64,000 bases of DNA from Thermodesulfobacteriota bacterium (lineage in GTDB: Bacteria > Desulfobacterota > Desulfobulbia > Desulfobulbales > SURF-16). Location: contig JBFMAY010000015.1 of the NCBI GenBank assembly GCA_040755455.1, positions 15,890 through 79,889 on the forward strand. Direction: 5' to 3'. Positions 17,867 to 50,286 of this stretch are shown here, one piece after another; position 1 is the first letter of the stretch, and every line of letters begins with the position of its first letter. The position numbers were made by a program, and so were the translations under genes. The notes below the pieces were generated by a model. That model searched no databases. It worked only from the letters and a program-made list of their open reading frames with translations, and had not been told where the DNA came from.

Positions 17867-17974
17867 AATTTTTCTCCTCGAAATTTGATAAAACTTTGAC
17901 CACCTGATCGACGCATGCTTATTCTTCAACAGGGCCCCTCCTCTTCCCCTATGATCCATCATGCGGTGACACAT

Positions 17975-20296: not shown

Positions 20297-20444
20297 TGCG
20301 CGAGACGGGGTAGGAGCCAGCCGAACCATAATCAGACTTGCCCTTCGTTTGCGCTTTTTCCATTTGAACCGTACTATCGCCATTGCATGGCGATCCCCCA
20401 CCCCTGTCGAAATCCAGCTGACTGTAACCTGCTTGCCTTTGCAC

Positions 20445-31284: not shown

Positions 31285-31364
31285 CTGTCAGCTTGGGGGC
31301 CGGACGGATGAAGGGGGATGTTATCAGTTCCCTGTCCCTGCAGGCAATTCCGGAGAGAGGGAGA

Positions 31365-32711: not shown

Positions 32712-32727
32712 CAGGGAGTTCTATAGG

Positions 32728-33852: not shown

Positions 33853-36800
33853 AAGGAATCGGCATTTCAGGCCACATCGCCAAGGCGTTCATCAAATCAA
33901 AGCTGACGCCGCTCATCGTGCTCGCCTCCCTGCTGCTCGGCGTGTTTGCCGTGGTGATCACCTCCCGGGAAGAGGAGCCGCAGATCGTCGTGCCCATGAT
34001 TGATGTCATCGTCAGCTATCCCGGGGCCACGGCCAAGGAGGTGGAAGAGCGGGTCACCAAGCCCATGGAGAAGTTTCTGTGGGAGATCAAGGGGGTGGAA
34101 TATATCTATTCCATCGTCAAGCCCGGCATGAACCTGACCATTGTCCGTTTCTATGTGGGCGAGGACATGGAGAAGAGCCTCGTCAATCTGCACACCAAGC
34201 TCATGTCCCACTATGACCGGATTCCCGCCGGCGTGTCCCAGCCCCTGGTCAAGCCCAAGTCCATTGACGATGTGCCGATCCTGACCCTGACCCTGTGGAG
34301 TCAAGGGGCACAGTATTCCGGCTATGAATTGCGGCGCGTTGCCGTGGAGGTGGCCGACGAGCTGAAGAAGGACATGGACGTCTCGGAGTTCTCGGTGATC
34401 GGCGGACAAAAACGGCAGGTGCGGGTTGCCCTTGATCCGGCCCGGCTCCGGGCTTACCACATCCCAGCCATCCAGATCATGCAGACCCTGCAGCAGGCCA
34501 ATTTCGTCCTGCCTGCCGGCTCCTTTCCGGCCAGTAACGGGGAGTTCCTGGTTGAAACCGGGGGATTTCTGGAAAATATCGAGGATGTGGGCCGGGTGGT
34601 GGTGGCGGTGGCCGATAATCGTCCCGTCTATCTGCGGGATGTGGCCGATTTGTCCGACGGGCCGGAGGAGCCGGCTGACTATGTGTTCATGGGCAGCGGT
34701 CCGGCGGCCGCCGCCAAGGCGCTGCCGTTGCTTACCGGTCCGCGGGAGGCGGTGACCATCGCCGTGTCCAAGAAAAAAGGGGCCAACGCCAGCACAGTGG
34801 CCAGCGCGGCCCTGGCCAAGATCGAGCAGCTGCGCGGCGGCACCCTGCCCAGCGACATCCAGGTGACGGTTACCCGCAATTACGGCGATACGGCAAAGGA
34901 GAAGTCCAACGAGCTGCTGGACCATATGCTCATCGCCACCATCTCGGTCATCATCCTCATGGCGCTGACCCTGGGCTGGCGCGAGTCCCTGGTGGTCGCC
35001 GTGGCGGTGCCGGTGACCCTGGCCCTGACCCTGTTGATCAACTATCTCTATGGCTACACCTTAAACCGGGTCACCCTGTTCGCGCTGATCTTCTCCATCG
35101 GTATTCTGGTGGATGACGCCATCGTGGTGGTGGAGAATATCCACCGCCATTTCAAGCTGCATGGGGTCAGCGCGCAGACCGCGGTGCTGGCGGTGGATGA
35201 GGTGGGCAGTCCCACCATACTCGCCACCTTTGCCGTCATCTTCGCCCTGCTGCCCATGGCCTTTGTCCGGGGCCTGATGGGACCCTATATGCGGCCCATC
35301 CCGGTGGGGGCCTCGGCCGCCATGCTTTTTTCCCTGCTGGTGGCCTTTATCGTCAGTCCCTGGCTCAGCTACAAGGTGCTCAGAAATGTGCAAAGCGACG
35401 GGCCGGGAGAACAAGAAACCGGCTGGCTGCATGATCTCTATGAGCGCATCCTCGGCCCGCTGCTTGATAACCGCGTTAAACGCCTGCTCGTGCTGGTCGT
35501 GGTCGCAGGCCTGCTCTTCCTGGCCATGCTGTTGGTGCCCTTCAAGGGGGTAACCGTCAAGATGCTGCCCTTTGACAACAAGAGCGAACTGCAGGTGATC
35601 ATCGACATGCCGGAAGGGGTGAGCCTGGAGCGGACGGCCGCCCTGGCGCGGGAGATGGGCGATTATCTGCAGACCGTGCCGGAGGTGACTGATTTCCAGA
35701 CATACGTCGGCACGGCCGCGCCCTACAACTTCAACGGCCTGGTGCGTCATTATTTTCTGCGCAACGCCGGCAACATGGCGGACATCCAGGTGAATTTCGT
35801 GGGTAAAAGCCAGCGCAAGCTGCAGAGCCATGACCTGGCCAAACGGCTGCGGCCCTCGCTCAAGGAGATCGGCGACCGCTATGGCGCCCGCATCAAGGTG
35901 GCGGAAATCCCGCCCGGCCCGCCGGTGCTCAGCACCTTGGTGGCCGAGGTCTATGGCCCGGACACGGAGCGGCAGGTCGAGATAGCCAGGGAGATCAGGA
36001 ATATCTTCGAGACCACCGACGGGGTGGTTGATATCGACTGGTTCGTGGAGGATGACCAGCCCAAGATCATCTTTACCGTGGACAAGGAAAAGGCGGCATA
36101 CCATGGCATCAGCACGGCGGTGGTGGCCCAGACCCTGCGCATGGCTTTGGGCGGCACGGCGGCCGGGCTGGTGCATTATGAAAAGGAGAAGGAGGCGGTG
36201 GAGCTGCTGCTGCGCGCCGCCCTGCCTGACCGGGCCAGCCTCGCCGGGCTGCAGGAGATGACCGTGCCGGCCGCCGACGGCTCGCTCATCCCCCTTGCCG
36301 CCCTGGTGCGCATCAGCCAGGGGACGGAAAACAAGACCATCTATCATAAGAATCTCAAAAGGGTGACCTATGTCACCGGCGATGTGGCGGGCACCATCGA
36401 AAGTCCGGTCTACGCCATCCTGGAGATGAAGGAGCGGATCCGGCAGCTCCCCTTGAAGGAGGGCTATGAACTGCACCAGTATTCGGCCGTGCAGCCGTGG
36501 CTGGAGACCCGGTACGCCATGAAGTGGGACGGCGAGTGGCACATCACCTATGAGGTCTTCCGTGATCTGGGCATTGCCTTTGCCGCAGTGCTGGTGCTGA
36601 TCTATATCCTGGTGGTGGCCTGGTTTCGCAGCTTTGTCACCCCCCTGGTGATCATGGCCCCCATTCCGTTGACCCTGGTGGGCATTCTGCCGGGCCACTG
36701 GCTGTTCGGCGCCTTTTTCACCGCCACCTCCATGATCGGTTTTATCGCCCTGTCCGGCATCATCGTCCGCAACTCCATCCTGCTGGTGGATTTTGTTCAG

Positions 36801-37085
36801 ATGGAATGGCAGAGCCGGGGTTCGCTGCGCACGGCCCTGATCACCGCCGGCGCGGTGCGGCTGCGGCCCATCGTGCTCACGGCCCTGGCTGTGGTGGTCG
36901 GCTCGTTTGTCATGATTTTTGATCCGATCTTCCAGGGATTGGCCATTGCCATGATGTTCGGAGCGGTGGCCGCCACAGCCCTGACGCTGATTGCCGTGCC
37001 CCTGCTCTATTTCGAGTTCTTCCGCAACCGGCCGTGTCCGCTGGCAGGGGAAGAGGAGGCGCAGCAGGAAACAAACGGCAAGTGA
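33849..37085 (+). CDS. RND-family efflux transporter permease (AcrB/CzcA superfamily)
   Basis: 1078 aa with 12-TM architecture and two large periplasmic loops. Typical N-terminus: [36 protein letters not shown]. Confidence 0.9.
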
Positions 37086-37179: not shown

Positions 37180-37599
37180 ATGATGAGATCCGGCGGGAAA
37201 TTTGCCATGCTGCTCGCGCTGGCGGCTCTGGTTTTGATGGGTGCTTATCCGTTGCACGCCGTGGAGGTGGTCCATTATAAATTCCTGGTGGACTCGGAGG
37301 ATGCGCAAAAATGTGTCGACTGCCATTACGGGCAGGAGAATGATTCCAAGACCAGTCGCTGTCCGAAAAGTTGCATGGTTGATCCGGGATCGTCCCATCC
37401 GGTTGCCAAGAAATATCCGCCGCGCGGCAAGGAAAAGGAATATATCTCCCTCAAGGAGCTCAGGGAGACCGGTCTTATCAAACTGCAGGATGGCAAGATA
37501 ACCTGTATCTCCTGTCATGATGTGGCCAACAATATCCCTTATCATACGGTGGTGGAAGACAGGGGCACCCAGCTGTGCAGGCTGTGTCATATCCGCTGA
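37180..37599 (+). CDS. Small periplasmic trihaem c-type cytochrome
   Basis: AAAGGAGGG RBS and a signal peptide. Three CXXCH motifs: CVDCH, CISCH, CRLCH. Confidence 0.8.
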   Translation: MMRSGGKFAMLLALAALVLMGAYPLHAVEVVHYKFLVDSEDAQKCVDCHYGQENDSKTSRCPKSCMVDPGSSHPVAKKYPPRGKEKEYISLKELRETGLIKLQDGKITCISCHDVANNIPYHTVVEDRGTQLCRLCHIR

Positions 37600-37643
37600 A
37601 GTGATGAATGTGCCAGGAGAATTCGTGACTGGCGAGGTGCCGG

Positions 37644-38078
37644 TTACTTGACTGAAAGAAATGTGTCGTCAATGTTGGCCACATATTTACTGTATTTCAT
37701 GTCCGACGTGAGGATATGGTCCATGAGCCAATCCTTGAGGAATTGGCCGATTTCCGGCAGGGCCTCCCTGCCGTAACTGCTCCAGTTTTCACAGTGGCGG
37801 AAGATGTCTTCCGTGAGCTTTTCATGCTGCCTGATATGGGAATTGAGCTGTTCGGCGGGAAATCGTGCTATCTCCATCAGTTTTTCTTCATCCCGGAAGT
37901 GTATTTCCGCGTACTGGACCAGCCGGTTCAGGATAGTATAGGCCACCTTTGGGCCCTCTCTTCTGGCAACGGCCTGGTTGAAGTCATTGATGATTTTTAT
38001 CAGATGCTGATGCTGATGATCAAGGTAGCTCGAGCGTACGCTGAAATCGCTGTTCCATATGATCTTATCCATTTTCAT
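37644..38078 (-). CDS. Hemerythrin-like (bacteriohemerythrin) protein
   Basis: HHE cation-binding histidines: YLDHQHQHL, EIHFRDEE, HIRQHEKL, DWLMDHI. 144 aa. Confidence 0.85.
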   Translation of the reverse strand: MKMDKIIWNSDFSVRSSYLDHQHQHLIKIINDFNQAVARREGPKVAYTILNRLVQYAEIHFRDEEKLMEIARFPAEQLNSHIRQHEKLTEDIFRHCENWSSYGREALPEIGQFLKDWLMDHILTSDMKYSKYVANIDDTFLSVK

Positions 38079-38264: not shown

Positions 38265-40340
38265 TCACATTGCCTTGCCGGGTCCCAGGGCAAGGCGAAG
38301 CTGGCGGGCCAGTTCGCTGGGCTGAAAAGGTTTCTGCAGGACGGTCACTCCCTGCTGTTGGGACTGGGCGTGAAATTCCTGATCAGATGCATAGCCGGTT
38401 ATGAATATGACAGGCAGTTCCGGCCGTATTTCCTTGATGAGCGCTGACATGGCCGGCCCTCCCATTCCCGGCATGACAATATCGGTGAGCACCAGGTCGA
38501 TAGCCGTTGTGTTTTCCTTGAACAGAGCCAGGCCCTCATTGCCATTGGCCGCAACCACCACCGTGTAGCCCAGGTCGGTCAAGGATGCCCGGATCATATC
38601 CCGCACCGCCAGGTCGTCTTCCACCAGCAGAATCGTTTCCTGGCCGCCGACCATCTCGTCAACAGGTTTATCGGGCTCCTCGATATCAACAAGAACCCGC
38701 CTTGCCTTGGGCAGATAGATATGAAAAGAGCTTCCCGTGCCCTGCTGGGTTTCCACCCTGATATGGCCGTTGTGCTGCCTGACGATACCATGAACGGTCG
38801 CCAGGCCCATACCCGTGCCTTTCCCCTGTTCCTTGGTGGTGAAAAACGGGTCAAAAATCATCTTCAGTGTTTCCTGGTCAATCCCCTGTCCATTATCGAT
38901 TACGGACAGCACAATATACGAACCACTGAAAGGGAGATGGTCAATATTGTTTATGGGAGAAGCAAGCTCCGCATGGCTGGTCCTGATGATGACCCGGCCG
39001 TTCTTCCGCAGCGCGTCCCTGGCGTTGACCACTAAATTCAACAGCACCTGTTCCATCTGGCCGATGTCTGCCTCAACGGCGCAGACTTCGGAGCACAGAT
39101 CAAAGCGCAGCTCCACATCTTCCCGGATAAGCCGCATCAGCATTTTGGCGAAATCCTTGATAACCGTGTTCAGATTGATAATCCGGGTTTCCATAACCTG
39201 TTTGCGGCTGAAGGCCAGAATCTGGCGGATGAGGTTCGCCGCGCGCCGGGCGCTTTTATCGATCTCCTCCAGACAGGACTGCAGAGGATGGTCCGGCCCG
39301 ATACAGGAATGGGCAAGCTCGCTATAACCCATGATGGGCGTGAGAATATTGTTCATGTCATGGGCCAGACCGCCAGCCAGGGTTCCCAGGGCCTCAAGCT
39401 TCTGAGTGTGGCGTATCTGGGCCTCAAGCACCTTTTTCTCCTTCTCGCCTTGAATGCGGGCCGTGATATCCCGGTCGATACCCCTGAAGCCTGTCACCTG
39501 GCCGTCCTCATCAAGAACCGGCCTGCCGCTGGATTCAATGACCACAATCCCGCCATCCTTGTGCAGGCACCGGTGTTCAATAGTCTCAAAACTGACGGCC
39601 GCTTTGGCGCTGTTGGAGAAAATCTGCTCATAATCGCAGCTGTCTTGTTCCTCAGCGCGGAGAGCGGCAAACATGTTTTTCCCCAGCAGTTCCTCGGGCG
39701 TAAAACCGAAAAGCCGCTCGGAAACCGGCGAGCAGTAAATCAATGTGCCCTGCCGGTCCGCTTCCCATACCCAGTCGCTGGTGGTTTCCACCAGGGAACG
39801 GAAGCGGGCCTCGGATTGGCTCAGGGCATTGCGCTGCCTGGCTTCCCGGCAGCCGATATTCCATTTTTCCGTGAGCGACAGGGCCAGTTGTCTGAGTTCT
39901 TCGGCGTCAAAGGGTTTACGGATAAAAAGAAATTTTGACGGCGTGCCCAGAGCCTGGGCGATCTCGGACCGTGAACGATCGGAGAAGGCCGTGACGATTA
40001 CGATTTCAACCAGAGGATCAACACGACGGATATGGGCGGCAGTCTCCACCCCATCCCAGCCGGGCGGCATGCGGATATCAAGAAAGATAACAGCAAAGGG
40101 CGCGCGCCGTTTGTTGGCTTCCAGAACCAGTCGGTACCCTTCCTGCCCCTGGCTGGCAAAAGAGAGGGTAAAGCGTTTTTCCTCGCCGGTTGATTTCCCG
40201 CCATGCTGTTCAATCAGGCTCGTGATCTGACCCAGCGGAGAATCTGAAGAAAGCGGTTTCGGCGCCAGCACCTCCTGATAGGCTTGCCAGATCTGCCGAT
40301 CATCATCTATAACAAGTATTCTGTCGTTATCCGTCAGCAT
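38265..40340 (-). CDS. Hybrid sensor kinase/response regulator (REC-PAS-HisKA-HATPase-REC)
   Basis: N-terminal REC (ILVIDDD..FLDIRMP), PAS region, H-box [12 protein letters not shown], ATPase motifs DNGQGI..GTGMGLA, C-terminal REC ([19 protein letters not shown]). Confidence 0.9.
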
Positions 40341-42120
40341 GATTTTCTTCTTTCAATCCAGGGGCGAGCGGCAGCCGGATGACAAATTCGGCTCCCTGCC
40401 CTGGGCCGTCACTGTTTGCCGTAATGGTGCCTTGATTGGCGATAATATAATTGGCGCAGGAATGCAGCCCAAAGCCTGATCCCGTGCGTTTGGTAGAGTA
40501 GCCGAAGGTGAAGAGTTTTTCCCGGTCCTCCGCTTTGAACCCGCAACCTGAGTCCTTGATGCGGCAGACCACCTGGCCCGGCTCTCCCGGCTGAAAAGCA
40601 GTGGCTATGGCCAGCCGTCTGCTTTCCGGCGCCGTCTCTTCCATGGCCTCAAAGGCGTTTTTGATGATATTGATCAGAATCTGCAGCAGTTTGGGCTCCT
40701 CGGCCCGTATCAGCGGCAACTGACCCAACTCGGTCGTTACCTTTATCTGCCGCTTCAGCAGGGAGTCTTCCAGCATCTCCAGGGCATCGGTCACCAGCTG
40801 ATTGAAGCTGATATCGGCAAAATTGCCCACCAGCCGGGCATAGCGCATCTGCAGGGCAATAATGGCTTCCACATGCTCATGCTTGTCCTTCACCTTTTTG
40901 ATTTCATCAATGCATTGATCGTACTCCTGCCGGATACTCTCCGGCAGGAGAGAAATAATGCCGCCAAATCGTTTTTTATCATCGGCGGACAACGCGCCGT
41001 CGCGGTCAATCACCTGGCCAAGGGGCGCCAGCGCGGCAGTCAAACCGGTGCGCAGCGGACTTTCCTCAAGTTTTTTTATAAGCAGAGAGAGGCCGATGTG
41101 GGCCGGAGTGATGGCATTGCCGATATTGTGCAGCACCCCCACCGCCATTTCCGCCATTCCCGCCTCATGGGCCTGTTGCACCAGGGAAGCCTGAGCCTGC
41201 TCAAGATCCCTGGTGCGCGCCGCCACCTTATCCTCAAGGGATCGGCTGTATTCCTGCAGTTGATGGTACGAATCCCGCAATTGGCGGGTCATGCTGTTAA
41301 ATGACCGGGAAAGGGTGAAGAACTCATCGCAGGCTATTCTGTTAACATGAATTTCGTGTTCCAGATCACCTTCCGCCACCTGTTTGACCCCGGCATTCAG
41401 GACATCGATGGAGCGGACAATGGATCGGGTGGCAAAAAGCGCCACCCCGGTGCCAAGCATGAAAAACAGGGCCATGGTGGAATAGAGATAGAGCTTGAAC
41501 TGCTGCAATCTTGCCGCCCATTCCTGACGGACAAAGCCGATTTCCTGGTCAAGTTTGGCCAGGGAATGGCCGCAGCGCATGCTTCCCCAAAGCTGGCCTC
41601 CGCTATAGACCGGCACAATCACCTCCAGAACTTTCGCGCTCTTCCGGACGTGGTATGAAACAGGCTGATCCTTGGGCAGATAATCAGGAAATTTTTCATC
41701 AGGCGGCTCTGCGGTGATCTTTTTTTCCTCGGCGGGCAACTGGTCAAGGTGTTTACTCTCCTCGCGCACCACAATATGCCGATCCCGGTCGGCGATGAGA
41801 CAATAGAGGATTTCCGGATCATTTTCCACCATCTGGCCGGCCATGTTGGACAGCAGGCTGAAGTCGAAACCCGCCACGGCCTCGCCTGCGCTCAGGCTGA
41901 GATTGCGGGCCAGGGTAACGGCCCGGCTTTCCTGGGCATCGTTCATCTGATTGATGGTGCGTTGCAGCTGCGTGTCACGGAAGCGGGCCGACTCCTGCAT
42001 AAAACGAAAGCCGGCCGCTGGAAAAAGTAGACAGAGGATGATCACATTCATCATAATGAGATAAACCCGGATCGATAACCTGCGGCTCTTTATTTTTGTC
42101 ATGGTTTCGAGAGGTTCCAT
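40327..42120 (-). CDS. Membrane sensor histidine kinase with a periplasmic sensor domain and HAMP
   Basis: Two TM segments flank a ~170-aa periplasmic domain, followed by HAMP, H-box VLHNIGNAITPA and ATPase motifs DSGCGF..GSGFGLH. It overlaps the next kinase gene by 14 nt. Confidence 0.85.
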   Translation of the reverse strand: MEPLETMTKIKSRRLSIRVYLIMMNVIILCLLFPAAGFRFMQESARFRDTQLQRTINQMNDAQESRAVTLARNLSLSAGEAVAGFDFSLLSNMAGQMVENDPEILYCLIADRDRHIVVREESKHLDQLPAEEKKITAEPPDEKFPDYLPKDQPVSYHVRKSAKVLEVIVPVYSGGQLWGSMRCGHSLAKLDQEIGFVRQEWAARLQQFKLYLYSTMALFFMLGTGVALFATRSIVRSIDVLNAGVKQVAEGDLEHEIHVNRIACDEFFTLSRSFNSMTRQLRDSYHQLQEYSRSLEDKVAARTRDLEQAQASLVQQAHEAGMAEMAVGVLHNIGNAITPAHIGLSLLIKKLEESPLRTGLTAALAPLGQVIDRDGALSADDKKRFGGIISLLPESIRQEYDQCIDEIKKVKDKHEHVEAIIALQMRYARLVGNFADISFNQLVTDALEMLEDSLLKRQIKVTTELGQLPLIRAEEPKLLQILINIIKNAFEAMEETAPESRRLAIATAFQPGEPGQVVCRIKDSGCGFKAEDREKLFTFGYSTKRTGSGFGLHSCANYIIANQGTITANSDGPGQGAEFVIRLPLAPGLKEENHADG

Positions 42121-42279
42121 TCATTAAGCATACAGGGATTTGAGCAGGGAAAGCAAATAAAACTCAATGGTCAGACAAAAAATGCGGAGCGTCCAGGTTT
42201 GCCGGCATTCTCTGCTGAACCGTTTATTGCCACGGGATTATTTTTTTCACGGGAAAAGTGTATGTTTTCACATGGGGAA

Positions 42280-42325
42280 TTGACAATTTATCTCAGGGAG
42301 TTCATGATAAAATAATTCATTTTAT
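42280..42325 (+). promoter_or_regulatory. Sigma-70-like promoter overlapped by an AT-rich palindrome (Fur-box-like operator candidate)
   Basis: TTGACA (42280-42285), 17-nt spacer, CATGAT (42303-42308). Palindrome ATAAAAT-N5-ATTTTAT at 42307-42325. GATAAAATAATTCATTTTA matches the 19-bp Fur consensus at about 12 of 19 positions by my count. Confidence 0.4.
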
Positions 42326-42342
42326 ATTATTAGGAGAAATAA

Positions 42343-44532
42343 TTGGAGAGAGGGAAAATTTTGAAAAAAGGTTGTACGACCGGCATTTTGGCCATGCTGC
42401 TGATGGTTCCGGCCACGCTGCGGGCCGCAGACCCTGATGAAGCAAACATCACGGCTTTTGAAGAGATGTTCGGGGAGCATCTCCAGGAAGAGGATGTCTA
42501 CCGGGCTGACCGTCTGCTGATAACAGCCACCGGCAGCCTCAAGCCGGTTCATCTGGCGCCCTCGGTGGCGTCGGTGATCACCAAAGAGGACATTGAAGAA
42601 ATGGGTGCCACTACTCTTGACGAGGTGCTGGAAACGGTACCCGGGCTGCATGTGGGAATAGGGACCACAGGTCTGGCCGGCTCACCAATCTATTCAATCC
42701 GCGGCATCCATACCGTTTTTAATCCACAGCTTCTCCTGCTGATTGACGGTATTCCCCATACCCTGGCGCAAACCGGCTCACGGCCATATCAATTCCGGAT
42801 GCCCGTGGCCAATATCTCGCGCATCGAGGTGGTGCGGGGACCGGGCTCCGCGGTACACGGGGCGGATGCCTTTGCCGGCACCATCAATATCATCACCAAG
42901 GATGGCCAGGAGATTGGCGGCACGCAAACGGGGGTAAGGGGGGGATCCTTCGACACCTATGATGCCTGGCTGCAGCATGGCGGCAACTATGGCGGTTGGG
43001 ATCTTGCGGGGAGCCTTGAATATGTTACCTCCCAGGGAGATGATGACCGGATTGTCGGGGAGGATCTGCAGACCATATTTGATAATGCCTTCAGAACCGC
43101 CGCCTCCTTGGCACCCGGCCCCATGGATACGGATAAAAGGATCTTCGACGGTCATATCAGCGCACGAAAGGACAACTGGACGGCCCGGTTCTGGACCTAT
43201 GCCCATGACGATACCGGACTAGGGACAGGGGTTTCCCAGACTTTGTCACCGGACAGCTATGCGGATGGAGAATGGTACCAGGGTGAAATTAATTATCATA
43301 ACGACAAGTTGCGCCGTGACTGGGCACTTGATCTCCGCTTCTATTATATTTACAGTTACAATTATTCCTATCTGACGATTCTGCCCCCGGGAACGGTATT
43401 GCCTATCGGGGCGGACGGTAACCTGGACACGCTTAATCCCGTCGGACTGACTACTTTTACAAACGGGTACATCGGTAGTCCGTACCAGATTGATCAACAT
43501 CTCGCCGGGGAAACCGCGCTTTTTTATTCCGGTTTCAACCAGCATCTCGTCCGTTTTGGAACCGGCTATAAATATATCAAGGAAGATACGGAAGAATATA
43601 AGAATTTCGGTCCCGGCGTCATCAATGGCACTGAGAGTGTGGTGGACGGCACTCTCACCAATGTAACGGACACCGCCTATGTCTATCAGCCTGAGGAAGA
43701 TCGTAAAATCACCTTTCTCTCTCTGCAGGATGAGTGGGCCTTTGTTCGCAACTGGGAGCTTACGGCGGGGGTAAGGTATGACAATTATTCCGATTTCGGC
43801 AATACCGTTAACCCTCGTCTGGCCCTGGTCTGGCAGACCCGTGCTGATCTAACCAGCAAACTGCTTTATGGGCGCGCCTTCCGGCCTCCTTCCTTTGCCG
43901 AGTTATATGCGCAGAATAACCCGACGGCGACTGGTAACCCTGATCTTGATCCTGAAACCATTGACACCCTGGAGCTGGCCTTTGACTATCAGCCTCTCGT
44001 GAATTTGCGGACAATAGTCAATGTTTTTGCCTATGAGATAAATGATCTCATCGATTATGTCCGTCCGCCAGGCGAGGTGAATAGTATCGCCCAGAATGCC
44101 AAGGACCAGAAAGGGCATGGTTTTGAACTGGAAGCGGATTGGCAGGCGACCAAGACCATTCGTTTGCGCGGCAATTTTGCCTACCAGAGAGCCAAAGACA
44201 AGGAGACAGACCAGCTCATCCATGACGCGCCCGGCATGCAGTTCTATGTCAATGCCCACTGGCAGTTCCAGTCGGACTGGTCCCTGGATGGCCAGTATTT
44301 CTGGATTGCTGACCGCCACCGTGCGGCAGGGGACCTGCGAGAGGATATCGATGACTACGACCTGGTCAATATGACTCTCAGGAGAAAGAATATCTTCATG
44401 AACCTGGATGCCGCCCTGGCCGTGCGCAACCTCTTTGACGAGGACGCGCGGGAGCCGGGCCTTGCCACCCAGCCGAATGACTATCCGTTGGAAGGCCGAA
44501 GTTTCTGGGCTGAGCTACGTTACTCTTTCTAG
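42343..44532 (+). CDS. TonB-dependent outer-membrane receptor
   Basis: Signal peptide ending TLRAAD. Plug motifs VITKEDIEEMGATTLDEVLETVPGLHV and IEVVRGPGSAVHGADAFAGTINIITK. C-terminal barrel ending WAELRYSF. TTG start at 42343 or 42361. Confidence 0.9.
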   Translation: MERGKILKKGCTTGILAMLLMVPATLRAADPDEANITAFEEMFGEHLQEEDVYRADRLLITATGSLKPVHLAPSVASVITKEDIEEMGATTLDEVLETVPGLHVGIGTTGLAGSPIYSIRGIHTVFNPQLLLLIDGIPHTLAQTGSRPYQFRMPVANISRIEVVRGPGSAVHGADAFAGTINIITKDGQEIGGTQTGVRGGSFDTYDAWLQHGGNYGGWDLAGSLEYVTSQGDDDRIVGEDLQTIFDNAFRTAASLAPGPMDTDKRIFDGHISARKDNWTARFWTYAHDDTGLGTGVSQTLSPDSYADGEWYQGEINYHNDKLRRDWALDLRFYYIYSYNYSYLTILPPGTVLPIGADGNLDTLNPVGLTTFTNGYIGSPYQIDQHLAGETALFYSGFNQHLVRFGTGYKYIKEDTEEYKNFGPGVINGTESVVDGTLTNVTDTAYVYQPEEDRKITFLSLQDEWAFVRNWELTAGVRYDNYSDFGNTVNPRLALVWQTRADLTSKLLYGRAFRPPSFAELYAQNNPTATGNPDLDPETIDTLELAFDYQPLVNLRTIVNVFAYEINDLIDYVRPPGEVNSIAQNAKDQKGHGFELEADWQATKTIRLRGNFAYQRAKDKETDQLIHDAPGMQFYVNAHWQFQSDWSLDGQYFWIADRHRAAGDLREDIDDYDLVNMTLRRKNIFMNLDAALAVRNLFDEDAREPGLATQPNDYPLEGRSFWAELRYSF

Positions 44533-44571
44533 TGATAAGAGGATGCGAAGCGATACTGTGTTCGATCCGGG

Positions 44572-45435
44572 GTGTCGATGGGGGACTATTTCATGCCGAA
44601 GATGAAAGACAAGGTCCAAAAACGCCAGGTGAAATTCGTCAGCCGCAGCGTCACCAGAATATGGGATGAGCAGGCCTCTGAGCACAATCCTTTTCTGGCC
44701 GAGCACTGTCGCTGTTATGGTTATGACCTGTTGGAGCTCATGCGAAAGTGTAGTTTCCCCGAGGTATTGTATCTTCTTTTCCGTGGCGAGTTGCCCACAG
44801 GGGAGCAGGCGCGATTACTTGAGACATTGATGATCGCCTTTATCAACCCCGGGCCTCGACATCCGGCCACCAGGGCGGCCATGTATGCCGGGGTCGGTAA
44901 AACCAATACCTCCCGCATCCTGCCTATTGCTTCCTCTGTTTTAGGGGGCGCACATCTCGGTAGCGAGGAGGTGGAAGCTGCAATGCTCTTTATCAAGCGC
45001 CATTACAGATTCGCTCCATCACGCATTACCGGTGATCTCATAGACGGATTAGCAGAAGGAGAAGAAAGGCAAGGGGATTTTCATGTCGCCCCGGGATTTG
45101 GCAGCCGGTTCGGCGGGATTGATCCCCTCCCTCAGAAGATTGCGGCCATGCTGGCTGGTATGTCTGCAGGCGCATCCGCTTTGCAATGGGGATGTTCTCT
45201 GGTTGAAAAATTAACCCCTTATAAAATGGGCTGGCTGGTTCCGGGTGTTGCCGCAGCGGTATTAGTCGACCTGGGCTTTCTCCCTCAGGCAGGCGCGGGG
45301 TTATTCCAGCTGATATGTTCTCCGGGCTTGTTGGCGCATGGTCTTGAGCTGGCCGGTCCCTATACCCCCATTACCGCTATGCCTTTTCTGGATGAGGACC
45401 ATTATATCATTGAACCGGAAGCACGAAAAAGATGA
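44572..45435 (+). CDS. Divergent citrate-synthase-fold protein A (citryl-CoA-lyase-like size)
   Basis: CS-like blocks YGYDLLELMRKCSFPEVLYLLFRGELPTGEQ, LGGAHLGSEEVEAAMLFI, PGFGSRFGGIDP and LFQLICSPGLLAHGLE. The GFGHRVY histidine appears replaced (GFGS). Confidence 0.6.
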   Translation: MSMGDYFMPKMKDKVQKRQVKFVSRSVTRIWDEQASEHNPFLAEHCRCYGYDLLELMRKCSFPEVLYLLFRGELPTGEQARLLETLMIAFINPGPRHPATRAAMYAGVGKTNTSRILPIASSVLGGAHLGSEEVEAAMLFIKRHYRFAPSRITGDLIDGLAEGEERQGDFHVAPGFGSRFGGIDPLPQKIAAMLAGMSAGASALQWGCSLVEKLTPYKMGWLVPGVAAAVLVDLGFLPQAGAGLFQLICSPGLLAHGLELAGPYTPITAMPFLDEDHYIIEPEARKR

Positions 45436-46246
45436 TGTCGCCTTTTGGCAGGAAAGGCGGGGAATAATCCGTACCCGTAAAGGTGGCTGGATTCCCGGGG
45501 GAATCGTGCATAATCACGGTTATTCCCTGGTTGACGATCTGATCGGCAAGGCCTCTTATTTCCAGGTGTTAATATTGAATGTGACAGGCCGTTTTCCTGA
45601 GCGTCGGCTGGCGGACTGGCTGGAGGCCCATTTTATTTGCCACAGCTATCCGGACGCCCGTATATGGTGCAACCACATCGGCAGTTTGGCCGGCACCATG
45701 CAAGCCAGCCCCGTCGCTGCCTCCTCTGCCGGTGTCTTGGCCTCTGACTCACGGATGTACGGGCCGGGAACGATACTTGCCTTTATTGATTTTATCACGG
45801 ATGCAGTTGTGAAAAAGAGGAATGGGACATCGGCTGAGGAAATTGTGCGTCTCTGCCAGCGACGACCTGCGGCCAAGCCGACGATTTTGGGGTATGCCAG
45901 GCCTGTGGCGAACGGTGATGAACGTATCCCGGCCATGGAACGTGTTACCCGGGAACTTGGTTTTGCCCGGGGAAAACATCTTGCCCTGGCCTTTGAAATT
46001 GATGAGGTAATGCACCGGCAACATAACGAGAGAATGAATCTGTTAGCCTACAGTATTCCGTTTCTGTGTGATCAAGGTTTTTCCGCCAAAGAAATATACC
46101 GGCTATTAAGCGTTCTGGTATGTTCCGGAGTGCTTGCCTGTTATTCGGAGGCCGCCGACAATCCCCCCGAGTCTTTCTTTGCTCTGCAATGCTGCGATAT
46201 CGACTACCAGGGGCCAAAGCCGCGTGAGGTTCCTTCCCTTGAATAA
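45392..46246 (+). CDS. Divergent citrate-synthase-fold protein B
   Basis: CS-like blocks HGYSLVDDLIGKASYFQVLILNVTGRFPE, ILGYARPVANGDERIPAMERV and LLSVLVCSGVLACYSEA. Both canonical catalytic His positions look substituted. Start uncertain (ATG 45392 or TTG 45410); it overlaps gene A. Confidence 0.55.
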   Translation: MRTIISLNRKHEKDDVAFWQERRGIIRTRKGGWIPGGIVHNHGYSLVDDLIGKASYFQVLILNVTGRFPERRLADWLEAHFICHSYPDARIWCNHIGSLAGTMQASPVAASSAGVLASDSRMYGPGTILAFIDFITDAVVKKRNGTSAEEIVRLCQRRPAAKPTILGYARPVANGDERIPAMERVTRELGFARGKHLALAFEIDEVMHRQHNERMNLLAYSIPFLCDQGFSAKEIYRLLSVLVCSGVLACYSEAADNPPESFFALQCCDIDYQGPKPREVPSLE

Positions 46247-46352
46247 TTTTTTATAAGTCTCCCTCGTTAACTGTATTGTAAGCAAGTCGGGTGTTATATC
46301 AAAAAACGCGCTGGAGGATTTATTTTAACCAGCAGCGTAGGAGTATGTCCAT

Positions 46353-48056
46353 ATGAACACGGCGGAATTAATTGTCACTGCCCTGAGGCGCATGGGGATC
46401 AAATATATCTTCGGCATTCCCGGCGGGGCCATCGAAGATCTGAACACCGCTATCTTCAATGAGCCGGCAATTGTTTCCATCGTCACCAAGCATGAGGAAG
46501 GGGCAGCCTTCATGGCTGACGGCTACGCCAGGGTGTCAGGAGAGCTGGGAGTCTGCTGCGCCACCTCCGGCCCCGGCGCTTCCAACCTGATCACCGGCCT
46601 GGCTTCGGCCTGCGCCGATTGCATTCCTGTGCTGGCTCTCACCGGCCAGGTGGCCACCTCGGTTTTCGGCAAGGGGGCTCTGCAAGAATCAGGGGATGAG
46701 GGGATGAATATCGTTTCCGTCTTCAAAAACTTTACAAAATATTCGGGCATGCTGATCAGTGAACAGCGAGCCGAGTACATGCTCCGCAAGGCCATCCGGT
46801 CCGCCCTGTCCGGGCCGACCGGCCCGGTGCACTTGAATCTCCCCATCAATATGATGAATAAAAAAGTCGTCGAACAGGGCGAATGTTTTCTGCAGCGCGA
46901 TATCCGCATGTTTGATGCGCAGGGCATCAAAGAGGCGGTCAAAAAACTGGTGGCGGCCACCCATCCGGTTATTGTCGCCGGCTGGGGGGTCAGCTTGTCA
47001 AAGGCCGCGTATGAATTGCGGGAACTGGCCCAGCTTCTGCAGGTGCCGGTTGCCACCTCGCCCAAGGGCAAGGGGGTCTTTCCGGAAAATCATCCGCTTT
47101 CCCTCGGTGTGCTCGGCTTTGCCGGCAATCCCGCGGCCAAACAGTATATCATTGAAGAAGAGGTGGATGTGCTGCTGGCAGTGGGCACATCCTTCAATGA
47201 GATGATGACAGGCGGCTGGGATCAGAAACTGAAACCGACAGACAGTCTGATTCATATTGATATCAATCCCTGCACCATCGGCAAGAACTATTGCACGACC
47301 ATCGGCCTTGAGGGTGATGCCCGCATGACTCTCAAGGAGTTGAGTAAGGCGGTGTTGGAAGAGCGCTCATGTCTGGGGATAAGGCCCCGCACCCGCCTGG
47401 CTGTCAAGGTGGCGGAATTAAAGAGCAAGGCTGCAACGACGGATGAGGTTCCGGTGTCCAGCAACGGATTATACCACCCCAGATGCCTGGTTGAAGACCT
47501 GCAGAAAAGCTGCCCGGAGGACACGATTTTTTTCGCCGACATGGGCTCCATCATGGCCTGGGCCACTCGCTATATGCGCTTTAAGATCCCCTACTGTTTC
47601 TACATGGGCATGGGATTCGGTTCCATGGGGTACGCGGTGGCCGCGCCGGTCGGCGCGAAGCTGGCCAGACCGGATAGGCCGGTGGTGACCATGGTGGGAG
47701 ACGGCAGTTTTCAGATGAACGGCTTTGAGGTGGCGACAGCGGTCAATTATGATATTCCCGTGGTCTGGGTGGTATTCAACAATGCCATGCTGGGCATGGT
47801 CTACCATGGCCGCCGTCTCTTCAGCACCCCGGTGCCGGACGGGCTGACCCCGCGCTTCAAGCGGATCGATTTCGCCCAGGTAGCTGAAGGATTGGGGGCC
47901 CGGGGGATCAGAGTGGAACAGCCCGGTGCCATTACCCCGGATTTCATGGCTGATGTGCTGCGGGCTGGCAGACCGACGGTGATTGATGTCTTGATCGACG
48001 AGGAGGCGGTGCCGCCCATTCATTCCAGGATCAAGACAGTGGCTCAGCAGGGTTGA
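46353..48056 (+). CDS. Thiamine-diphosphate-dependent enzyme of the acetolactate-synthase large-subunit family
   Basis: AGGAG RBS. N-terminal Pyr domain (IFGIPGGAIEDL..HEEGAAFMADGYARVSG..ATSGPGASNLITGL). ThDP motif VGDGSFQMNG...VVFNNAMLGMV. Confidence 0.85.
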   Translation: MNTAELIVTALRRMGIKYIFGIPGGAIEDLNTAIFNEPAIVSIVTKHEEGAAFMADGYARVSGELGVCCATSGPGASNLITGLASACADCIPVLALTGQVATSVFGKGALQESGDEGMNIVSVFKNFTKYSGMLISEQRAEYMLRKAIRSALSGPTGPVHLNLPINMMNKKVVEQGECFLQRDIRMFDAQGIKEAVKKLVAATHPVIVAGWGVSLSKAAYELRELAQLLQVPVATSPKGKGVFPENHPLSLGVLGFAGNPAAKQYIIEEEVDVLLAVGTSFNEMMTGGWDQKLKPTDSLIHIDINPCTIGKNYCTTIGLEGDARMTLKELSKAVLEERSCLGIRPRTRLAVKVAELKSKAATTDEVPVSSNGLYHPRCLVEDLQKSCPEDTIFFADMGSIMAWATRYMRFKIPYCFYMGMGFGSMGYAVAAPVGAKLARPDRPVVTMVGDGSFQMNGFEVATAVNYDIPVVWVVFNNAMLGMVYHGRRLFSTPVPDGLTPRFKRIDFAQVAEGLGARGIRVEQPGAITPDFMADVLRAGRPTVIDVLIDEEAVPPIHSRIKTVAQQG

Positions 48057-48101
48057 CGGCTGTGGCGGGAGTTGCCGGTTCCCGCGTTGCGTATCAGGCG
48101 T

Positions 48102-49052
48102 TTACTCCACTACTTCGCTGGCCATGCCCAGAGCCTGGGTGCTGAGAGGGATGCCGATACGTTCCGCGGTGCGCTGATTGAGCAGGATGCGGGTGCCGAG
48201 CGGCTCCATTACCCCGATGGCTTTGGGCAACTGGCCCCGCTGCATGATGTTTCTGGCCATGGAGGCCGCCTGGGTGCCGATATTGTCCATGTCGGGCAGG
48301 ACCGACAGCAATATGCCGATCTCCGCCAGATTGGCACCCTGACCGATGCAGACCAAGCGGTCCTTGATGCACCGCTCCTTTACCCAGTCCATGTTCTCCA
48401 CCGTGTAGGTAAGAGGATCATTAAGCAGCCAGAAACCGTCAACCTGGCCGGAGAGCTGGCGATAGGCGCCCTTGAACTCTGCCGGGGAGCTGATCCGGCG
48501 CTCCGGCAGATCCAGGCCGAGCATGGCGGCCGCTTCCCTGGCTTGGGTCACAATCTCCTTCGAGTGGTCCTGACTGTAAATTACTCCTATCCGGTGGGCT
48601 GTCGGGACCAGCATGCTCAGGGTGAGAAACTGAATGCCCGGAGTTACCTCCGAGGCAATGCCTGCCATATTATCCTGGCCATCGAGGAGGTTATACTTCT
48701 GCCAGTTGAAGACCATGGCGAAGATAACCGGAATTTCCTGGTGCTGTCTGGTCCAGAGTTTGGCGGCATAGGCGGCCTTGGCGCCCAGGGCGAAAATCAG
48801 ACCAGGACGGCTGGCCAGCAGCCGATCCATCAGCTGCGGATCGCGGCGAATATCGCCCTGGAGATTATAAATCTGCACCTCCATGCCGATGTCATTGCTG
48901 AAGGCGCTGACGGGTCTCAGGTAGGCCTGTTCGCTATCGCTGAGCAACACAGCCACCTGCTGCTCCGCCTGCTGGGCCGATAGTGCCGGAGGAAAAGGCA
49001 GAATCAGCGTCAGGACAATCAATATCTTAATGGGAAACAGTTTGCCAGCCAT
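48102..49052 (-). CDS. Periplasmic ABC-type substrate-binding-like protein (ABC_sub_bind family), orphan
   Basis: Signal peptide MAGKLFPIKILIVLTLILPFPPALSAQQ. Periplasmic-binding-fold pattern (VAVLLSDSEQAY.., IGVIYSQDHSKE..). No permease or ATPase gene is adjacent. Confidence 0.65.
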   Translation of the reverse strand: MAGKLFPIKILIVLTLILPFPPALSAQQAEQQVAVLLSDSEQAYLRPVSAFSNDIGMEVQIYNLQGDIRRDPQLMDRLLASRPGLIFALGAKAAYAAKLWTRQHQEIPVIFAMVFNWQKYNLLDGQDNMAGIASEVTPGIQFLTLSMLVPTAHRIGVIYSQDHSKEIVTQAREAAAMLGLDLPERRISSPAEFKGAYRQLSGQVDGFWLLNDPLTYTVENMDWVKERCIKDRLVCIGQGANLAEIGILLSVLPDMDNIGTQAASMARNIMQRGQLPKAIGVMEPLGTRILLNQRTAERIGIPLSTQALGMASEVVE

Positions 49053-49818
49053 CGATATGCAGCATCTCCATAATAGCGGGAGAGGGGGATCTCCCATTCT
49101 GCGCCATAAATATTTTTTTTACCAGCTCGATATCCGCCGGATCAAGTCTGCCAGCCATCATGCAAAGCAGAGGCATGGGTATGGGATTCGATTCGATCAG
49201 GGGCTCCAGCATTTCCACAAGCTTTGTGTCCAGTTTGTCAACGGCCGACAGGGTATCCCTGCCCACCACCGCGGCATCAACATGGCCAAGGGATACTGCG
49301 AAGAATGCGTCGGCATCTTTGGAAATATTGACGATATGATTTTGCAGGAGATCAACATTCCTGCGGTCGAACAATTCCCGGCTCACAGACTCGCCGCTGT
49401 CAGGTCCCATGGTGGTCATGGCCACGGTGCGCCCGGAAAAGTCGGCAAGTTTCAACGATGAAGACTTGCGCACCAGCAGAAGTTTGGTGTAATACGGCCG
49501 GCCGTGGCGCAGCGGGGTTAATAACGGGATGAGACCCAACTCCTTGCCATGGCATCGATAGTACCATTCTGGCAGAAAAACCAGGGCAGGGGGGCTGCTT
49601 TTCAGCTTGTTGTCAAAATCGACTTTATGGGCAAAGGGCTGGAAACGGGCGGGTAAGCCTTCCTGGGCAAGGAATCTGTCCATCTCGCGCTTGAGATGGG
49701 AAAGGTTGATCTGAGACGAGTCTGGATAGTAAAAATAGAAATCAACCGATTCCGCGGCCGGGCAGAAACCAGCTTGCAGCAAAACAAAAAACAGGATGAT
49801 GCACAAAATGCGTATCAT
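49027..49818 (-). CDS. PhnD-like (phosphonate-binding-fold) periplasmic binding protein, orphan
   Basis: Signal peptide MIRILCIILFFVLLQAGFCPAAES. Type-2 binding-protein-like sequence (YYTKLLLVRKSSSLKLADFSGRTVAM). Overlaps the downstream binding-protein gene by 26 nt. Confidence 0.6.
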   Translation of the reverse strand: MIRILCIILFFVLLQAGFCPAAESVDFYFYYPDSSQINLSHLKREMDRFLAQEGLPARFQPFAHKVDFDNKLKSSPPALVFLPEWYYRCHGKELGLIPLLTPLRHGRPYYTKLLLVRKSSSLKLADFSGRTVAMTTMGPDSGESVSRELFDRRNVDLLQNHIVNISKDADAFFAVSLGHVDAAVVGRDTLSAVDKLDTKLVEMLEPLIESNPIPMPLLCMMAGRLDPADIELVKKIFMAQNGRSPSPAIMEMLHIDGWQTVSH

Positions 49819-50286
49819 GCGCCGACACACATCAGCAGGATGCGTCCTATGGATTTTACCGGCAAAAAACTTCATTGTAATTATTTATACACCATTTCAT
49901 CAGGCATCACAAAAAAGAATAGTTGTTTAATAAATATTGCTAGTGTTGGCGGAAATCTGAATTTCAGTATTATGGTGCTTGCGACCGCAGTTTTTGCATG
50001 ATCAACGGGGTGTTGTCCGAAAATATGGTTCAGCCGCGGGGCGGTTGCCAGCCGTCATGATGAGTTTTGCCGGTGACATGCCCCATTGTCTCTTGCTGAA
50101 AAAATTGGAGAGCAGTAAATTCGCCGACAGCAGGATTGTATTATCCCATGAAAAATGATGGCTTCAAAAAAAATCCTGGCGCAGGATTTCCGTGACGATA
50201 AATCGTGAAGTTGTCATGCACTGTATGGCTGTCGAGAGGTTTTTTTACGAGACAGTCAAAAGAGAGAATGGTTGCAGCGGGGTGTT

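Follow-up and report, generated by a model that had tools for sequence, protein, structure and literature searches.

Enzymes dependent on thiamine diphosphate (ThDP) and encoded beside a 3-ketoacyl-acyl carrier protein synthase III (KAS-III) are among the described systems closest to the one reported here. In carbazole biosynthesis, a ThDP enzyme and a KAS-III-like enzyme are an established pairing for acyloin-type C-C chemistry (PMC7466098). BbmA of Brevibacillus migulae (PDB 8x3x), whose gene is directly followed by a KAS-III gene, and CsmA (PDB 8x3z) are members with solved structures, and the function of BbmA is deduced from its ThDP/KAS-III locus and from the chemistry of NzsH/CqsB3 (PMC7466098). 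A BbmA-like gene and a KAS-III gene are also paired, together with genes for a prephenate dehydratase and a major facilitator superfamily transporter, in Thermosporothrix hazakensis, which PMC6497799, citing Park et al. 2014, refers to as a documented acyloin producer. A different kind of comparison is offered by the cntOLMI operon of Pseudomonas aeruginosa, whose product pseudopaline is secreted and re-imported (PMC5719457). In this study, a 64,000-nt stretch of contig JBFMAY010000015.1 from a Thermodesulfobacteriota bacterium (positions 15,890 to 79,889; hereafter the window) was analysed around a gene quartet at 42280-48056. The quartet encodes a TonB-dependent outer-membrane receptor (TBDR), two citrate synthase (CS)-like subunits, termed A and B, and a ThDP enzyme. 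L- and P-numbers are labels of related loci and of protein clusters, respectively.

The quartet belongs to a conserved and previously undescribed module of sediment bacteria, cable bacteria included. The module spans 38265-49875 and comprises the quartet, two periplasmic binding proteins and two sensor kinases. An earlier note on this DNA had treated the four genes as the unit, which proved too narrow, and had recognised no described pathway in them; a literature search likewise found no paper describing a receptor/A/B/ThDP cassette. The module can be described as a small-molecule cluster linked to a receptor, in which a new heteromeric branch of the CS fold takes the place of KAS-III. We give an even chance to the reading that it works as one system, which makes and secretes a small metabolite, recaptures it through the outer membrane and detects it once it is in the periplasm.

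Neither A nor B reached the curated citrate synthase or citryl-CoA lyase cut-offs of Pfam and NCBIfam. Against PF00285, A scored 25.4 bits (cut-off 27) over residues 45-85 only, and the Pfam search of B returned no PF00285 match and nothing else of relevance. The best NCBIfam citryl-CoA lyase models (PRK06224) were matched over nearly the full length, at 82 bits for A (cut-off 261) and 52 bits for B (cut-off 245). The best solved relative of both proteins was the citryl-CoA lyase of Hydrogenobacter thermophilus (PDB 6hxp), also matched over nearly the full length (A, 3.6e-16; B, 1.2e-07). The AlphaFold2 model of B, built from a 46-sequence family alignment, had a predicted local distance difference test (pLDDT) of 92.3 and a predicted template-modelling score (pTM) of 0.87. 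Foldseek placed 6hxp at the top of its matches (TM-score 0.71/0.78, probability 1.00), followed by the citryl-CoA-lyase modules of ATP-citrate lyase (ACLY) and then by methylcitrate and citrate synthases. A citrate-synthase-type fold is present in both A and B. Similar to 6hxp, the ACLY module and PF00285, they are ~260-290 residues in size and lack the N-terminal extension of CS. The CS/citryl-CoA lyase family is also oligomeric, with active sites near the subunit interfaces, which is counted as a further likeness. BLASTP detected no mutual similarity between A and B (E 0.27). Given that each is related only to citryl-CoA lyase, the word paralogues, used for them in the earlier note, stands for the fold and for nothing closer. 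Public data contained over 1,300 A-type proteins, which their sources name citrate synthase or hypothetical, and 347 clusters of B-type proteins at 50% identity.

For the analysis of catalytic residues, 125 A-type and 91 B-type sequences were aligned to 6hxp and numbered as in pig CS; the B set consisted of 50%-identity cluster representatives and extended down to ~25% identity. The equivalent of His274 was His in 102 of the 125 A sequences and never His in B, where it was Ile, Leu, Met, Ala or Val. The equivalent of His320 was never His in A, being Ser in 102/125, and was deleted in 90/91 B sequences. At the position of Asp375, which corresponds to the Asp mutated in the PDB entries titled ACLY-D1026A, Thr, Pro or Ser was found in A and Ala or Gly in B, and Asp in neither. 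The Arg329 equivalent was hydrophobic in A and was Arg, as part of a DER motif, throughout B (91/91). Finally, the Arg401 equivalent was Cys (79/125) or Ser (29/125) in A and Phe, Val or similar in B. In A of the window, the His274 equivalent (GGAHLGS) and the PGFG loop are kept, and His320 is replaced by Ser, Asp375 by Pro, Arg329 by Leu and Arg401 by Cys. The motifs that had been singled out by eye (YLLFRGELP, GGAHLGS and GFGSRF in A; YGPGT and GYARPV in B) are present and align to the catalytic positions. The 6hxp matches, the model of B and the family alignments thus agree with the proposal of a CS fold with altered catalytic residues. By alignment, the canonical His/His/Asp triad is not intact in A or in B. 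The losses are complementary, as had also been suggested: only the His274 equivalent is kept by A and only the Arg329 equivalent by B.

Judged from these residues, A-type and B-type proteins alike cannot be citrate synthases or citryl-CoA lyases as these enzymes are known. Given that the triad and the oxaloacetate-binding arginines are lost, A and B would not make or cleave citrate or citryl-CoA. Each family keeps near-invariant polar residues of its own, so A and B are under selection and are not decaying copies. In B, the invariant or near-invariant residues are R90, W92, N94, R170-P171, D176-E177-R178, N216 and D227; the A family retains NPGPRHPATRA, PGFG and the AH motif. Merging the His of A and the Arg of B into one composite active site was considered and rejected as a simple reading. 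In CS, His274 and Arg329 come from the same subunit, so the two retained residues cannot simply form one canonical site. Different from citryl-CoA lyase, which is a homo-oligomer, A and B are two non-identical and mutually unrecognisable subunits, both of which have lost the equivalents of His320, Asp375 and Arg401. They are also encoded in a receptor/ThDP operon, with no citryl-CoA synthetase partner and outside a carbon-fixation context.

The A gene was directly upstream of the B gene in all 62 loci with enough upstream sequence, and, of 79 unique loci, 76 had an A stop that overlapped the start of B, with a median spacing of -29 nt. Moreover, natural single-chain A-B fusions occurred in five clusters (P0258, P0391, P0292, P0294 and P0325), with identities of 27-61%. 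The homolog search with fusion P0258 gave only 7 proteins, and the frequency of fusion is therefore poorly estimated. The fusions are unlikely to be artefacts of frameshifts, given that the length and the composition of their linkers vary. Fusion P0258 was modelled with AlphaFold2 after row placement in its alignment had been checked; the model had a pTM of 0.78, with residues 1-16, 260-301 and 556-574 disordered. Because each half accounts for less than half of the chain, such a pTM would imply that the A and B halves are confidently packed. That A and B form a heteromer, proposed in the earlier note as a heterodimer, is well supported by the gene overlap, the strict adjacency, the natural fusions and the fusion model. 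In addition, B was found fused to a short-chain dehydrogenase/reductase (SDR) in proteins of ~530 residues (P0393-P0395, clusters of 15, 18 and 1 members; also L173 9001-10590), and a B-B tandem was found in P0241; both kinds of protein show the CS-like subunits to be modular.

Scanning metagenomes with the B-family alignment yielded 80 loci, of which 18 had at least 8 kb on both sides and are called fully flanked. Their neighbours were counted by tblastn with queries from the window, and divergent kinases or binding proteins may be undercounted. Within 9 kb, the fully flanked loci contained genes for a TBDR in 18 cases, a ThDP enzyme in 15, a kinase like HK2 of the window in 7, an SDR in 6, a binding protein of family PF04392 in 4 and KAS-III in none. 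The quartet is strongly syntenic beyond the window, for the receptor and the ThDP gene as well as for the A-B pair. The position and strand of the ThDP gene differ between loci, and in relatives all eight genes can share one strand. For instance, the order in L003 is PhnD-like, PF04392, TBDR, A, B, ThDP, HK1 and HK2, and that in L005 is PhnD-like, PF04392, HK1, response regulator, HK2, TBDR, A, B, SDR and ThDP. In L001 of Ca. Electrothrix aarhusensis, genes for an O-methyltransferase, an SDR and a condensation-domain protein lie between B and ThDP. An aconitase gene (- strand) and thiS/thiG follow the L001 cluster (16931-20840), an arrangement that may be coincidental and is recorded because of the ThDP enzyme and the genes annotated as citrate synthase beside it.

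The association is also found at greater distance, in shuffled order. L087 (A/B ~40% identical to those of the window) contains ThDP, an A-B fusion, TBDR, SDR and a histidine kinase, and L090/L089 (A/B ~30-37%) contain ThDP, SBP_bac_5, a small open reading frame (ORF), an A-B fusion and a dCache-GAF-PAS kinase cascade. In L173 (B ~46%), a DUF4154 hybrid histidine kinase is found with TBDR, A, B::SDR, a REC-PAS-GGDEF-EAL protein, ThDP and an ATP-binding cassette (ABC) importer. In L174 (B 29%), three acyl-CoA dehydrogenases are followed by ThDP, A, B, TBDR, PF04392 and an sCache hybrid histidine kinase. Thus, ThDP, A and B recur with a binding protein and/or a kinase in L087, L090, L173 and L174, and a TBDR is found with them in L087, L173 and L174.

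The ThDP enzyme had been described as acetolactate synthase (ALS)-like, which the comparisons did not sustain. Its score against TIGR00118 (IlvB) was 414.9 bits, below the cut-off of 538.35, and the other ALS equivalogs were also far below their cut-offs. Among PDB entries, BbmA ranked first with 466.7 bits (8.9e-139), ahead of CsmA with 306.3 bits (3.4e-90) and of the best ALS with 248.1 bits (1.5e-72). The identity to BbmA was ~50% over residues 3-555, and the catalytic Glu region (HEEGAAFMA) and the GDG/NN ThDP motif region align with those of BbmA. A ThDP enzyme 66% identical to that of the window is encoded by the cultured Thiovibrio sp. JS02. An IlvN/IlvH small subunit or an ilv context was absent beside the ThDP gene in the window and in all related loci, where the neighbours encode A/B, the receptor, SDR, O-methyltransferase and kinases. 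By similarity and motifs, the enzyme is of the BbmA/CsmA type and not a bona fide IlvB; this group has no curated model and is defined here by similarity and context. The enzyme is predicted to be an acyloin or alpha-hydroxy-beta-keto-acid synthase. The butanediol pathway encoded by budABC/alsSD consists of a catabolic ALS, an acetolactate decarboxylase and an SDR acetoin reductase. [quoted passage not shown] The middle enzyme, however, is an acetolactate decarboxylase in the former and a CS-fold heteromer in the latter. Moreover, the ThDP enzyme of the window is closer to BbmA than to catabolic ALS (467 vs ~182-190 bits), and bud/als operons contain no receptor or sensors.

Similar to the genes for BbmA/CsmA-type enzymes, which are typically paired with the gene of one accessory enzyme, and functionally to NzsH/CqsB3-type enzymes, whose partner is KAS-III-like, the ThDP gene of the window is accompanied by a partner. 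The partner of BbmA is the thiolase-fold KAS-III, whereas that of the window enzyme is the CS-fold heteromer. The BbmA locus also lacks the TonB-dependent receptor, binding proteins and kinases that are all present in the window cluster. No KAS-III was found in the window or in any of the 80 A/B loci. In a quick neighbour-joining tree, the ThDP clade of the window was sister to the enzymes of L065/L084 from Nitrospirota/Thermodesulfovibrionales (56% identity), whose loci contain TBDR, KAS-III, ThDP, a PF04392 binding protein and an sCache/HAMP/PAS hybrid histidine kinase (e.g., L084 6754-14827). Given that KAS-III is found there in the closest ThDP relatives outside the Desulfobulbales, the A/B pair stands in the KAS-III slot. 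The variant of the module with KAS-III instead of the CS-like pair also appears to be undescribed. L057 contains TBDR, KAS-III and a BbmA-like ThDP gene as well, and the carriers of such loci are Nitrospirota/Thermodesulfovibrionales and Nitrospinota.

Among 86 BbmA-like loci, KAS-III adjoined in 24 and an O-methyltransferase in 22, and hybrid kinases were often nearby, mostly in Elusimicrobia. BbmA-like genes of archaea and Dehalococcoidia had no KAS-III, O-methyltransferase or hybrid kinase neighbours. In the Elusimicrobia loci L009-L053 (e.g., L013 10001-17759), a PF00891-type O-methyltransferase gene lies ~1.4 kb downstream of the BbmA-like gene, and a hybrid histidine kinase is often 4-6 kb away. 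Such a combination of ThDP enzyme, tailoring enzyme and sensor is a recurrent and unexplained pairing.

The features of the module are listed in Table 1. The ORF listing confirmed the four same-strand genes of the quartet at the positions first given for them. The receptor and A genes are separated by 39 nt, the A and B genes overlap by 44 nt, and B and ThDP are 106 nt apart. The longest ORF of B begins at 45338, and homolog alignments begin at residue 1-2 of the protein starting from the ATG at 45392. For A, the exact start is uncertain, with four candidates only a few codons apart (GTG at 44572, or the in-frame ATG at 44578, 44593 or 44602); the starts chosen for A, and those for B in other loci, were assigned heuristically. 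As read from the translations, the receptor and both binding proteins have signal peptides and A, B and the ThDP enzyme have none, suggesting that the latter three are cytoplasmic and the binding proteins periplasmic. Long ORFs were also found antisense to well-supported genes, at 48072-48983 (+), 35061-36698 (-) and 46523-47071 (-), opposite the PF04392 gene, the gene of an AcrB pump and the ThDP gene, respectively. They look like by-products of G+C-rich coding sequence, not genes.

Table 1. Features of the module, with positions in the window
Feature	Position	Strand	Length (residues)	Basis
HK2, hybrid sensor kinase	38265..40340	-		REC-like N-terminus, PAS, HisKA, HATPase_c, REC (Pfam)
HK1, membrane sensor kinase	40327..42120	-		Pfam HAMP + HATPase_c; two transmembrane segments read from translation
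Divergent intergenic region	42121..42342	.		Promoter-like site, AT-rich palindrome, AGGAG
TonB-dependent outer-membrane receptor (TBDR)	42343..44532	+	729	Signal peptide; Pfam Plug + TonB_dep_Rec_b-barrel
CS-like subunit A, citryl-CoA-lyase fold	44572..45435	+	287	Citrate_synt fragment; 6hxp match
CS-like subunit B, citryl-CoA-lyase fold	45392..46246	+	284	6hxp match; without Pfam model
BbmA/CsmA-type ThDP-dependent carboligase	46353..48056	+	567	Pfam TPP_enzyme N/M/C complete
Periplasmic binding protein PF04392 (ABC_sub_bind)	48102..49097	-		Pfam 6e-20; signal peptide
PhnD-like periplasmic binding protein PF12974	49027..49875	-		Pfam 2.5e-16; signal peptide

The receptor has a plug at residues 72-180 and a 22-strand-type barrel, and its score was under the cut-off of every NCBIfam subfamily. 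Its PDB matches were Cir and BtuB, mainly in the plug, and are uninformative on the ligand. No STN domain was matched, since the signal peptide and TonB-box region lead straight into the plug. Sigma and anti-sigma genes were also absent nearby, and the receptor is not a transducer of the FecA/FpvA type. By spacing, the receptor gene would be co-transcribed with A and B, a feature shared with siderophore/metallophore clusters. The gap between the receptor stop and the A start had a median of 20 nt across loci. A promoter-like TTGACA-17-CATGAT is found at 42280-42308, and the TTG start of the receptor is preceded by an AGGAG at a distance of 8 nt. The promoter-like -10 is overlapped by a perfect inverted repeat that is AT-rich (ATAAAAT-AATTC-ATTTTAT, 42306-42324); it agrees with the Fur consensus at only 12 of 19 positions and was not conserved in related loci.

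HK1 has a ~190-residue periplasmic domain flanked by its two transmembrane segments, and its gene overlaps that of HK2 by 14 nt. The HK1 homologs in L003 and L005 were 46% identical and had weak to faint sCache_3_2 matches. The identities of HK2 with its homologs in the same cluster in L003 and L005/L006 were 44-50%, and HK2 is the predicted cytoplasmic relay component of the module. The PF04392 protein is TrpX-like (53.6 bits, below cut-off), and its nearest PDB entries, 3lft and 3lkv, have aromatic ligands. Its orthologs are found within the module in L001-L006, L084, L065 and L174. No cognate ABC permease or ATPase for this protein was found in the window. The PhnD-like gene overlaps the PF04392 gene by 71 nt, and in L001, L003 and L005 its orthologs (38-39% identity) immediately precede the PF04392 gene. 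No PDB match was found for the PhnD-like protein.

Based on family membership and gene context, the cytoplasmic BbmA-type ThDP enzyme would join two 2-oxoacids, or a 2-oxoacid and an aldehyde, to form an acyloin or alpha-hydroxy-beta-keto acid. The obligate A/B heteromer would then act on this product, probably with an acyl-CoA, and would fill the position and role that KAS-III has in the nearest related clusters. The use of acyl-CoA is suggested by the acyl thioester substrates of both the CS family and KAS-III, by the His and PGFG retained in A and by the carboxylate-type Arg cluster retained in B. Tailoring of the product would follow in many relatives, by enzymes that differ between lineages: an SDR (in some cases joined to B), an O-methyltransferase or a condensation-domain protein. 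The insertion of such genes in Ca. Electrothrix and the B::SDR fusions give the module a biosynthetic flavour. After leaving the cell, the product would re-enter the periplasm through the dedicated receptor, either free or in complex with a metal. The two binding proteins may present it there to HK1, which would signal through HK2. We propose tentatively, and with less than even confidence, the more specific view that A/B are a new heteromeric CS-fold branch, with a chemistry that no known member of the fold shares, which, together with BbmA-type ThDP enzymes, builds a new class of acyloin-derived extracellular molecules that anaerobic sediment bacteria, cable bacteria among them, recapture by the TBDR and read by binding-protein/kinase relays.

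Several results weigh against a system of synthesis, recapture and sensing. All canonical catalytic residues are missing, and A/B might not be catalytic. Among the fully flanked loci, kinases were found within 9 kb in only 7/18 and PF04392 in 4/18, and the ThDP gene was missing in 3/18. A/B-linked ThDP enzymes fall into two distant clades, both BbmA/CsmA-like and not ALS-like, so that the A/B-ThDP partnership is not a single unit inherited together in a simple way. In L092 (5321-8801), an AsnB-like gene directly precedes a divergent A/B pair (30-33%) with no ThDP or receptor gene within 8 kb, and A/B therefore have at least one other context. No exporter was found in the conserved set, an EamA-like fragment occurring only after the fusion gene in L091, and no inner-membrane importer except in L173. 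The run of three acyl-CoA dehydrogenase genes that immediately precedes the module in L174 (1195-4857), its most divergent version, would also suit catabolism. Regulatory sequences gave no support to a link with metals: upstream of 42 receptor genes, Fur-consensus matches were no better than those of shuffled sequences (11.2 vs 10.8 of 19), the Zur, NikR and ModE matrices not having been applied; 7-/8-mer and palindrome enrichment in 27 AT-rich upstream regions yielded only generic A-tract words and no conserved operator; and no Rfam family or riboswitch was found in the whole window.

Within the proposed system of synthesis, recapture and sensing, the product could serve either of two ends. 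It is possible, though rather unlikely, that the product is a small hydroxy- or keto-carboxylate chelator, which captures a trace metal scarce in sulfidic sediment and whose metal complex is re-imported by the receptor, with the binding proteins and kinases reporting its periplasmic level. The receptor is the tightest partner of A/B, an ABC importer adjoins in L173, and the palindrome of the window overlaps the promoter-like -10, a position often taken by boxes of the Fur family. Several TonB-dependent transporters of cable bacteria are unassigned (PMC11247825). The cntOLMI operon is a precedent, with the gene of a TonB-dependent receptor first, those of two biosynthetic enzymes, which overlap, next and no ABC importer (PMC5719457). 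Its enzymes, however, are unrelated (nicotianamine-synthase-like CntL and opine dehydrogenase CntM), and cnt has an EamA exporter and a Zur box, whereas the module has no conserved exporter and no detected metalloregulator box. Besides the regulatory results above, to which the lack of conservation of the palindrome and the lack of a metal riboswitch belong, the enzymes of the module speak against a metallophore. No non-ribosomal peptide synthetase (NRPS), NRPS-independent siderophore (NIS) synthetase of the IucA/IucC type or CntL/CntM-type (opine-type) enzyme was among the Pfam hits of the window module, as the earlier note had remarked for NRPS and NIS genes; a single gene for a condensation domain was confined to some variants of the Electrothrix type. 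O-methylation, as in the Electrothrix variant, would block an atom that might otherwise serve as a ligand, and the GGDEF-EAL (L173) and REC-SpoIIE (L174) outputs are unusual for metal uptake. The carboxylate-metallophore idea of the earlier note is thus neither confirmed nor excluded, and the signalling outputs argue at least equally for a signal. An autoinducer or cue of the acyloin type (alpha-hydroxyketone-like), delivered by the receptor and the binding proteins to HK1/HK2, which control lifestyle outputs, is nonetheless unlikely in our estimate. Alpha-hydroxyketones are established autoinducers (CAI-1/LAI-1), and LuxP/LuxQ is a precedent for sensing by a binding protein and a kinase. Kinases and binding proteins occur in the module in at least five divergent lineages (the window, L003/L005, L087, L090, L173 and L174), kinase relays are accompanied by c-di-GMP outputs such as the REC-PAS-GGDEF-EAL protein of L173, and Elusimicrobia BbmA-like genes are also near hybrid kinases. 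Similar to CqsA/CqsS and LqsA/LqsS, the module has an acyloin-type predicted product and a membrane histidine kinase with a hybrid relay, and, as in LuxP/LuxQ-type sensing, its periplasmic binding proteins are encoded without transporter partners. However, the synthase would be ThDP-dependent, whereas the Cqs/Lqs synthase depends on pyridoxal phosphate, no homolog of known autoinducer synthases is present, and the module has no sequence relationship to Cqs, Lqs or LuxPQ. Moreover, small signals normally need no TonB-dependent receptor, which the module requires and which is its most constant partner, and kinases were missing within 9 kb in 11/18 fully flanked loci.

Three further explanations depart from the system proposed here. 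In a catabolic locus, an exogenous compound would enter through the receptor and be sensed through binding proteins and kinases; its breakdown in the cytoplasm would fall to the ThDP enzyme, working as a lyase or decarboxylase, and to A/B, working as a retro-Claisen lyase on a CoA ester. Receptor, sensor and enzymes are a common layout of nutrient-utilisation loci, the nearest characterised relative of A/B is a lyase, and the ThDP superfamily includes benzaldehyde lyase and 2-hydroxyacyl-CoA lyase; the acyl-CoA dehydrogenases flanking L174 would fit as well. This explanation is doubtful: the conserved set has no CoA ligase or transferase and no inner-membrane importer, the catalytic Asp and His of the lyase are missing from A/B, the closest relatives of the ThDP enzyme are in two-gene ThDP/KAS-III clusters typical of biosynthesis, and the O-methyltransferase and condensation-domain genes of the Electrothrix cluster are of biosynthetic types. 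It is improbable that A/B are a non-catalytic pair derived from citryl-CoA lyase, which binds a ligand or serves as scaffold or regulatory partner of the ThDP enzyme or the kinases. The family-wide loss of all canonical catalytic residues except one His (A) and one Arg (B) would be expected of such a pair, and the end of the L089 fusion gene overlaps the start of the gene for the dCache-GAF-PAS kinase. Yet the near-invariant polar clusters of A and B sit at pocket positions, the B::SDR fusions tie B to an oxidoreductase step, and A/B hold the slot of an enzyme, KAS-III, in related clusters. Finally, an explanation in which A/B serve central carbon metabolism as ordinary paralogues of citryl-CoA lyase or citrate synthase agrees with their names in the source data, with fold-level similarity and with the aconitase gene adjoining the cluster in Ca. 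Electrothrix. The residue analysis effectively refutes it, the triad being absent from both families; the scores are also far under the NCBIfam and Pfam cut-offs, no citryl-CoA synthetase partner is present, and the linkage to the receptor and the ThDP enzyme is constant.

Other genes of the window were recorded around the module. A complete resistance-nodulation-division (RND) efflux system (outer-membrane factor, membrane-fusion protein and AcrB-type pump) is encoded at 31293-37085, just upstream of the module. This operon was considered as the exporter of the module and rejected; given that it does not adjoin the module in other genomes, such a role is unsupported. Between the efflux pump and HK2 (37180-38078), a 139-residue periplasmic multihaem cytochrome c with paired CXXCH motifs and a divergent hemerythrin-domain protein are encoded. 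Farther upstream, a 718-residue protein with MopE-type putative metal-binding motifs and several multihaem cytochrome c domains is encoded at 15818-17974 (-), and a transporter of the CitMHS family (citrate/metal-citrate type) at 20445-21674 (-), ~21 kb from the module and with no evidence of a link to it. On the downstream side, a few kb from the module, the segment 52097-54384 encodes a stand-alone periplasmic protein that is dCache-like and, after it, a methyl-accepting chemotaxis protein.

The results of this study indicate that the annotations citrate synthase for A and acetolactate synthase for the ThDP enzyme are functionally wrong. Metabolic reconstructions that adopt such names could be distorted for Desulfobulbales and cable bacteria, for instance, in inferences on the tricarboxylic acid (TCA) or reverse TCA cycle. 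A CS-fold heteromer that lacks the catalytic residues, is strongly selected and takes the place of KAS-III is a lead to new acyl-CoA or 2-oxoacid chemistry. Moreover, a receptor- and sensor-linked pathway that is common in sulfidic sediments could be an unrecognised system of trace-metal acquisition or communication. If true, recapture and sensing of an acyloin-derived molecule would constitute a new metallophore or signal system with a wide environmental distribution.

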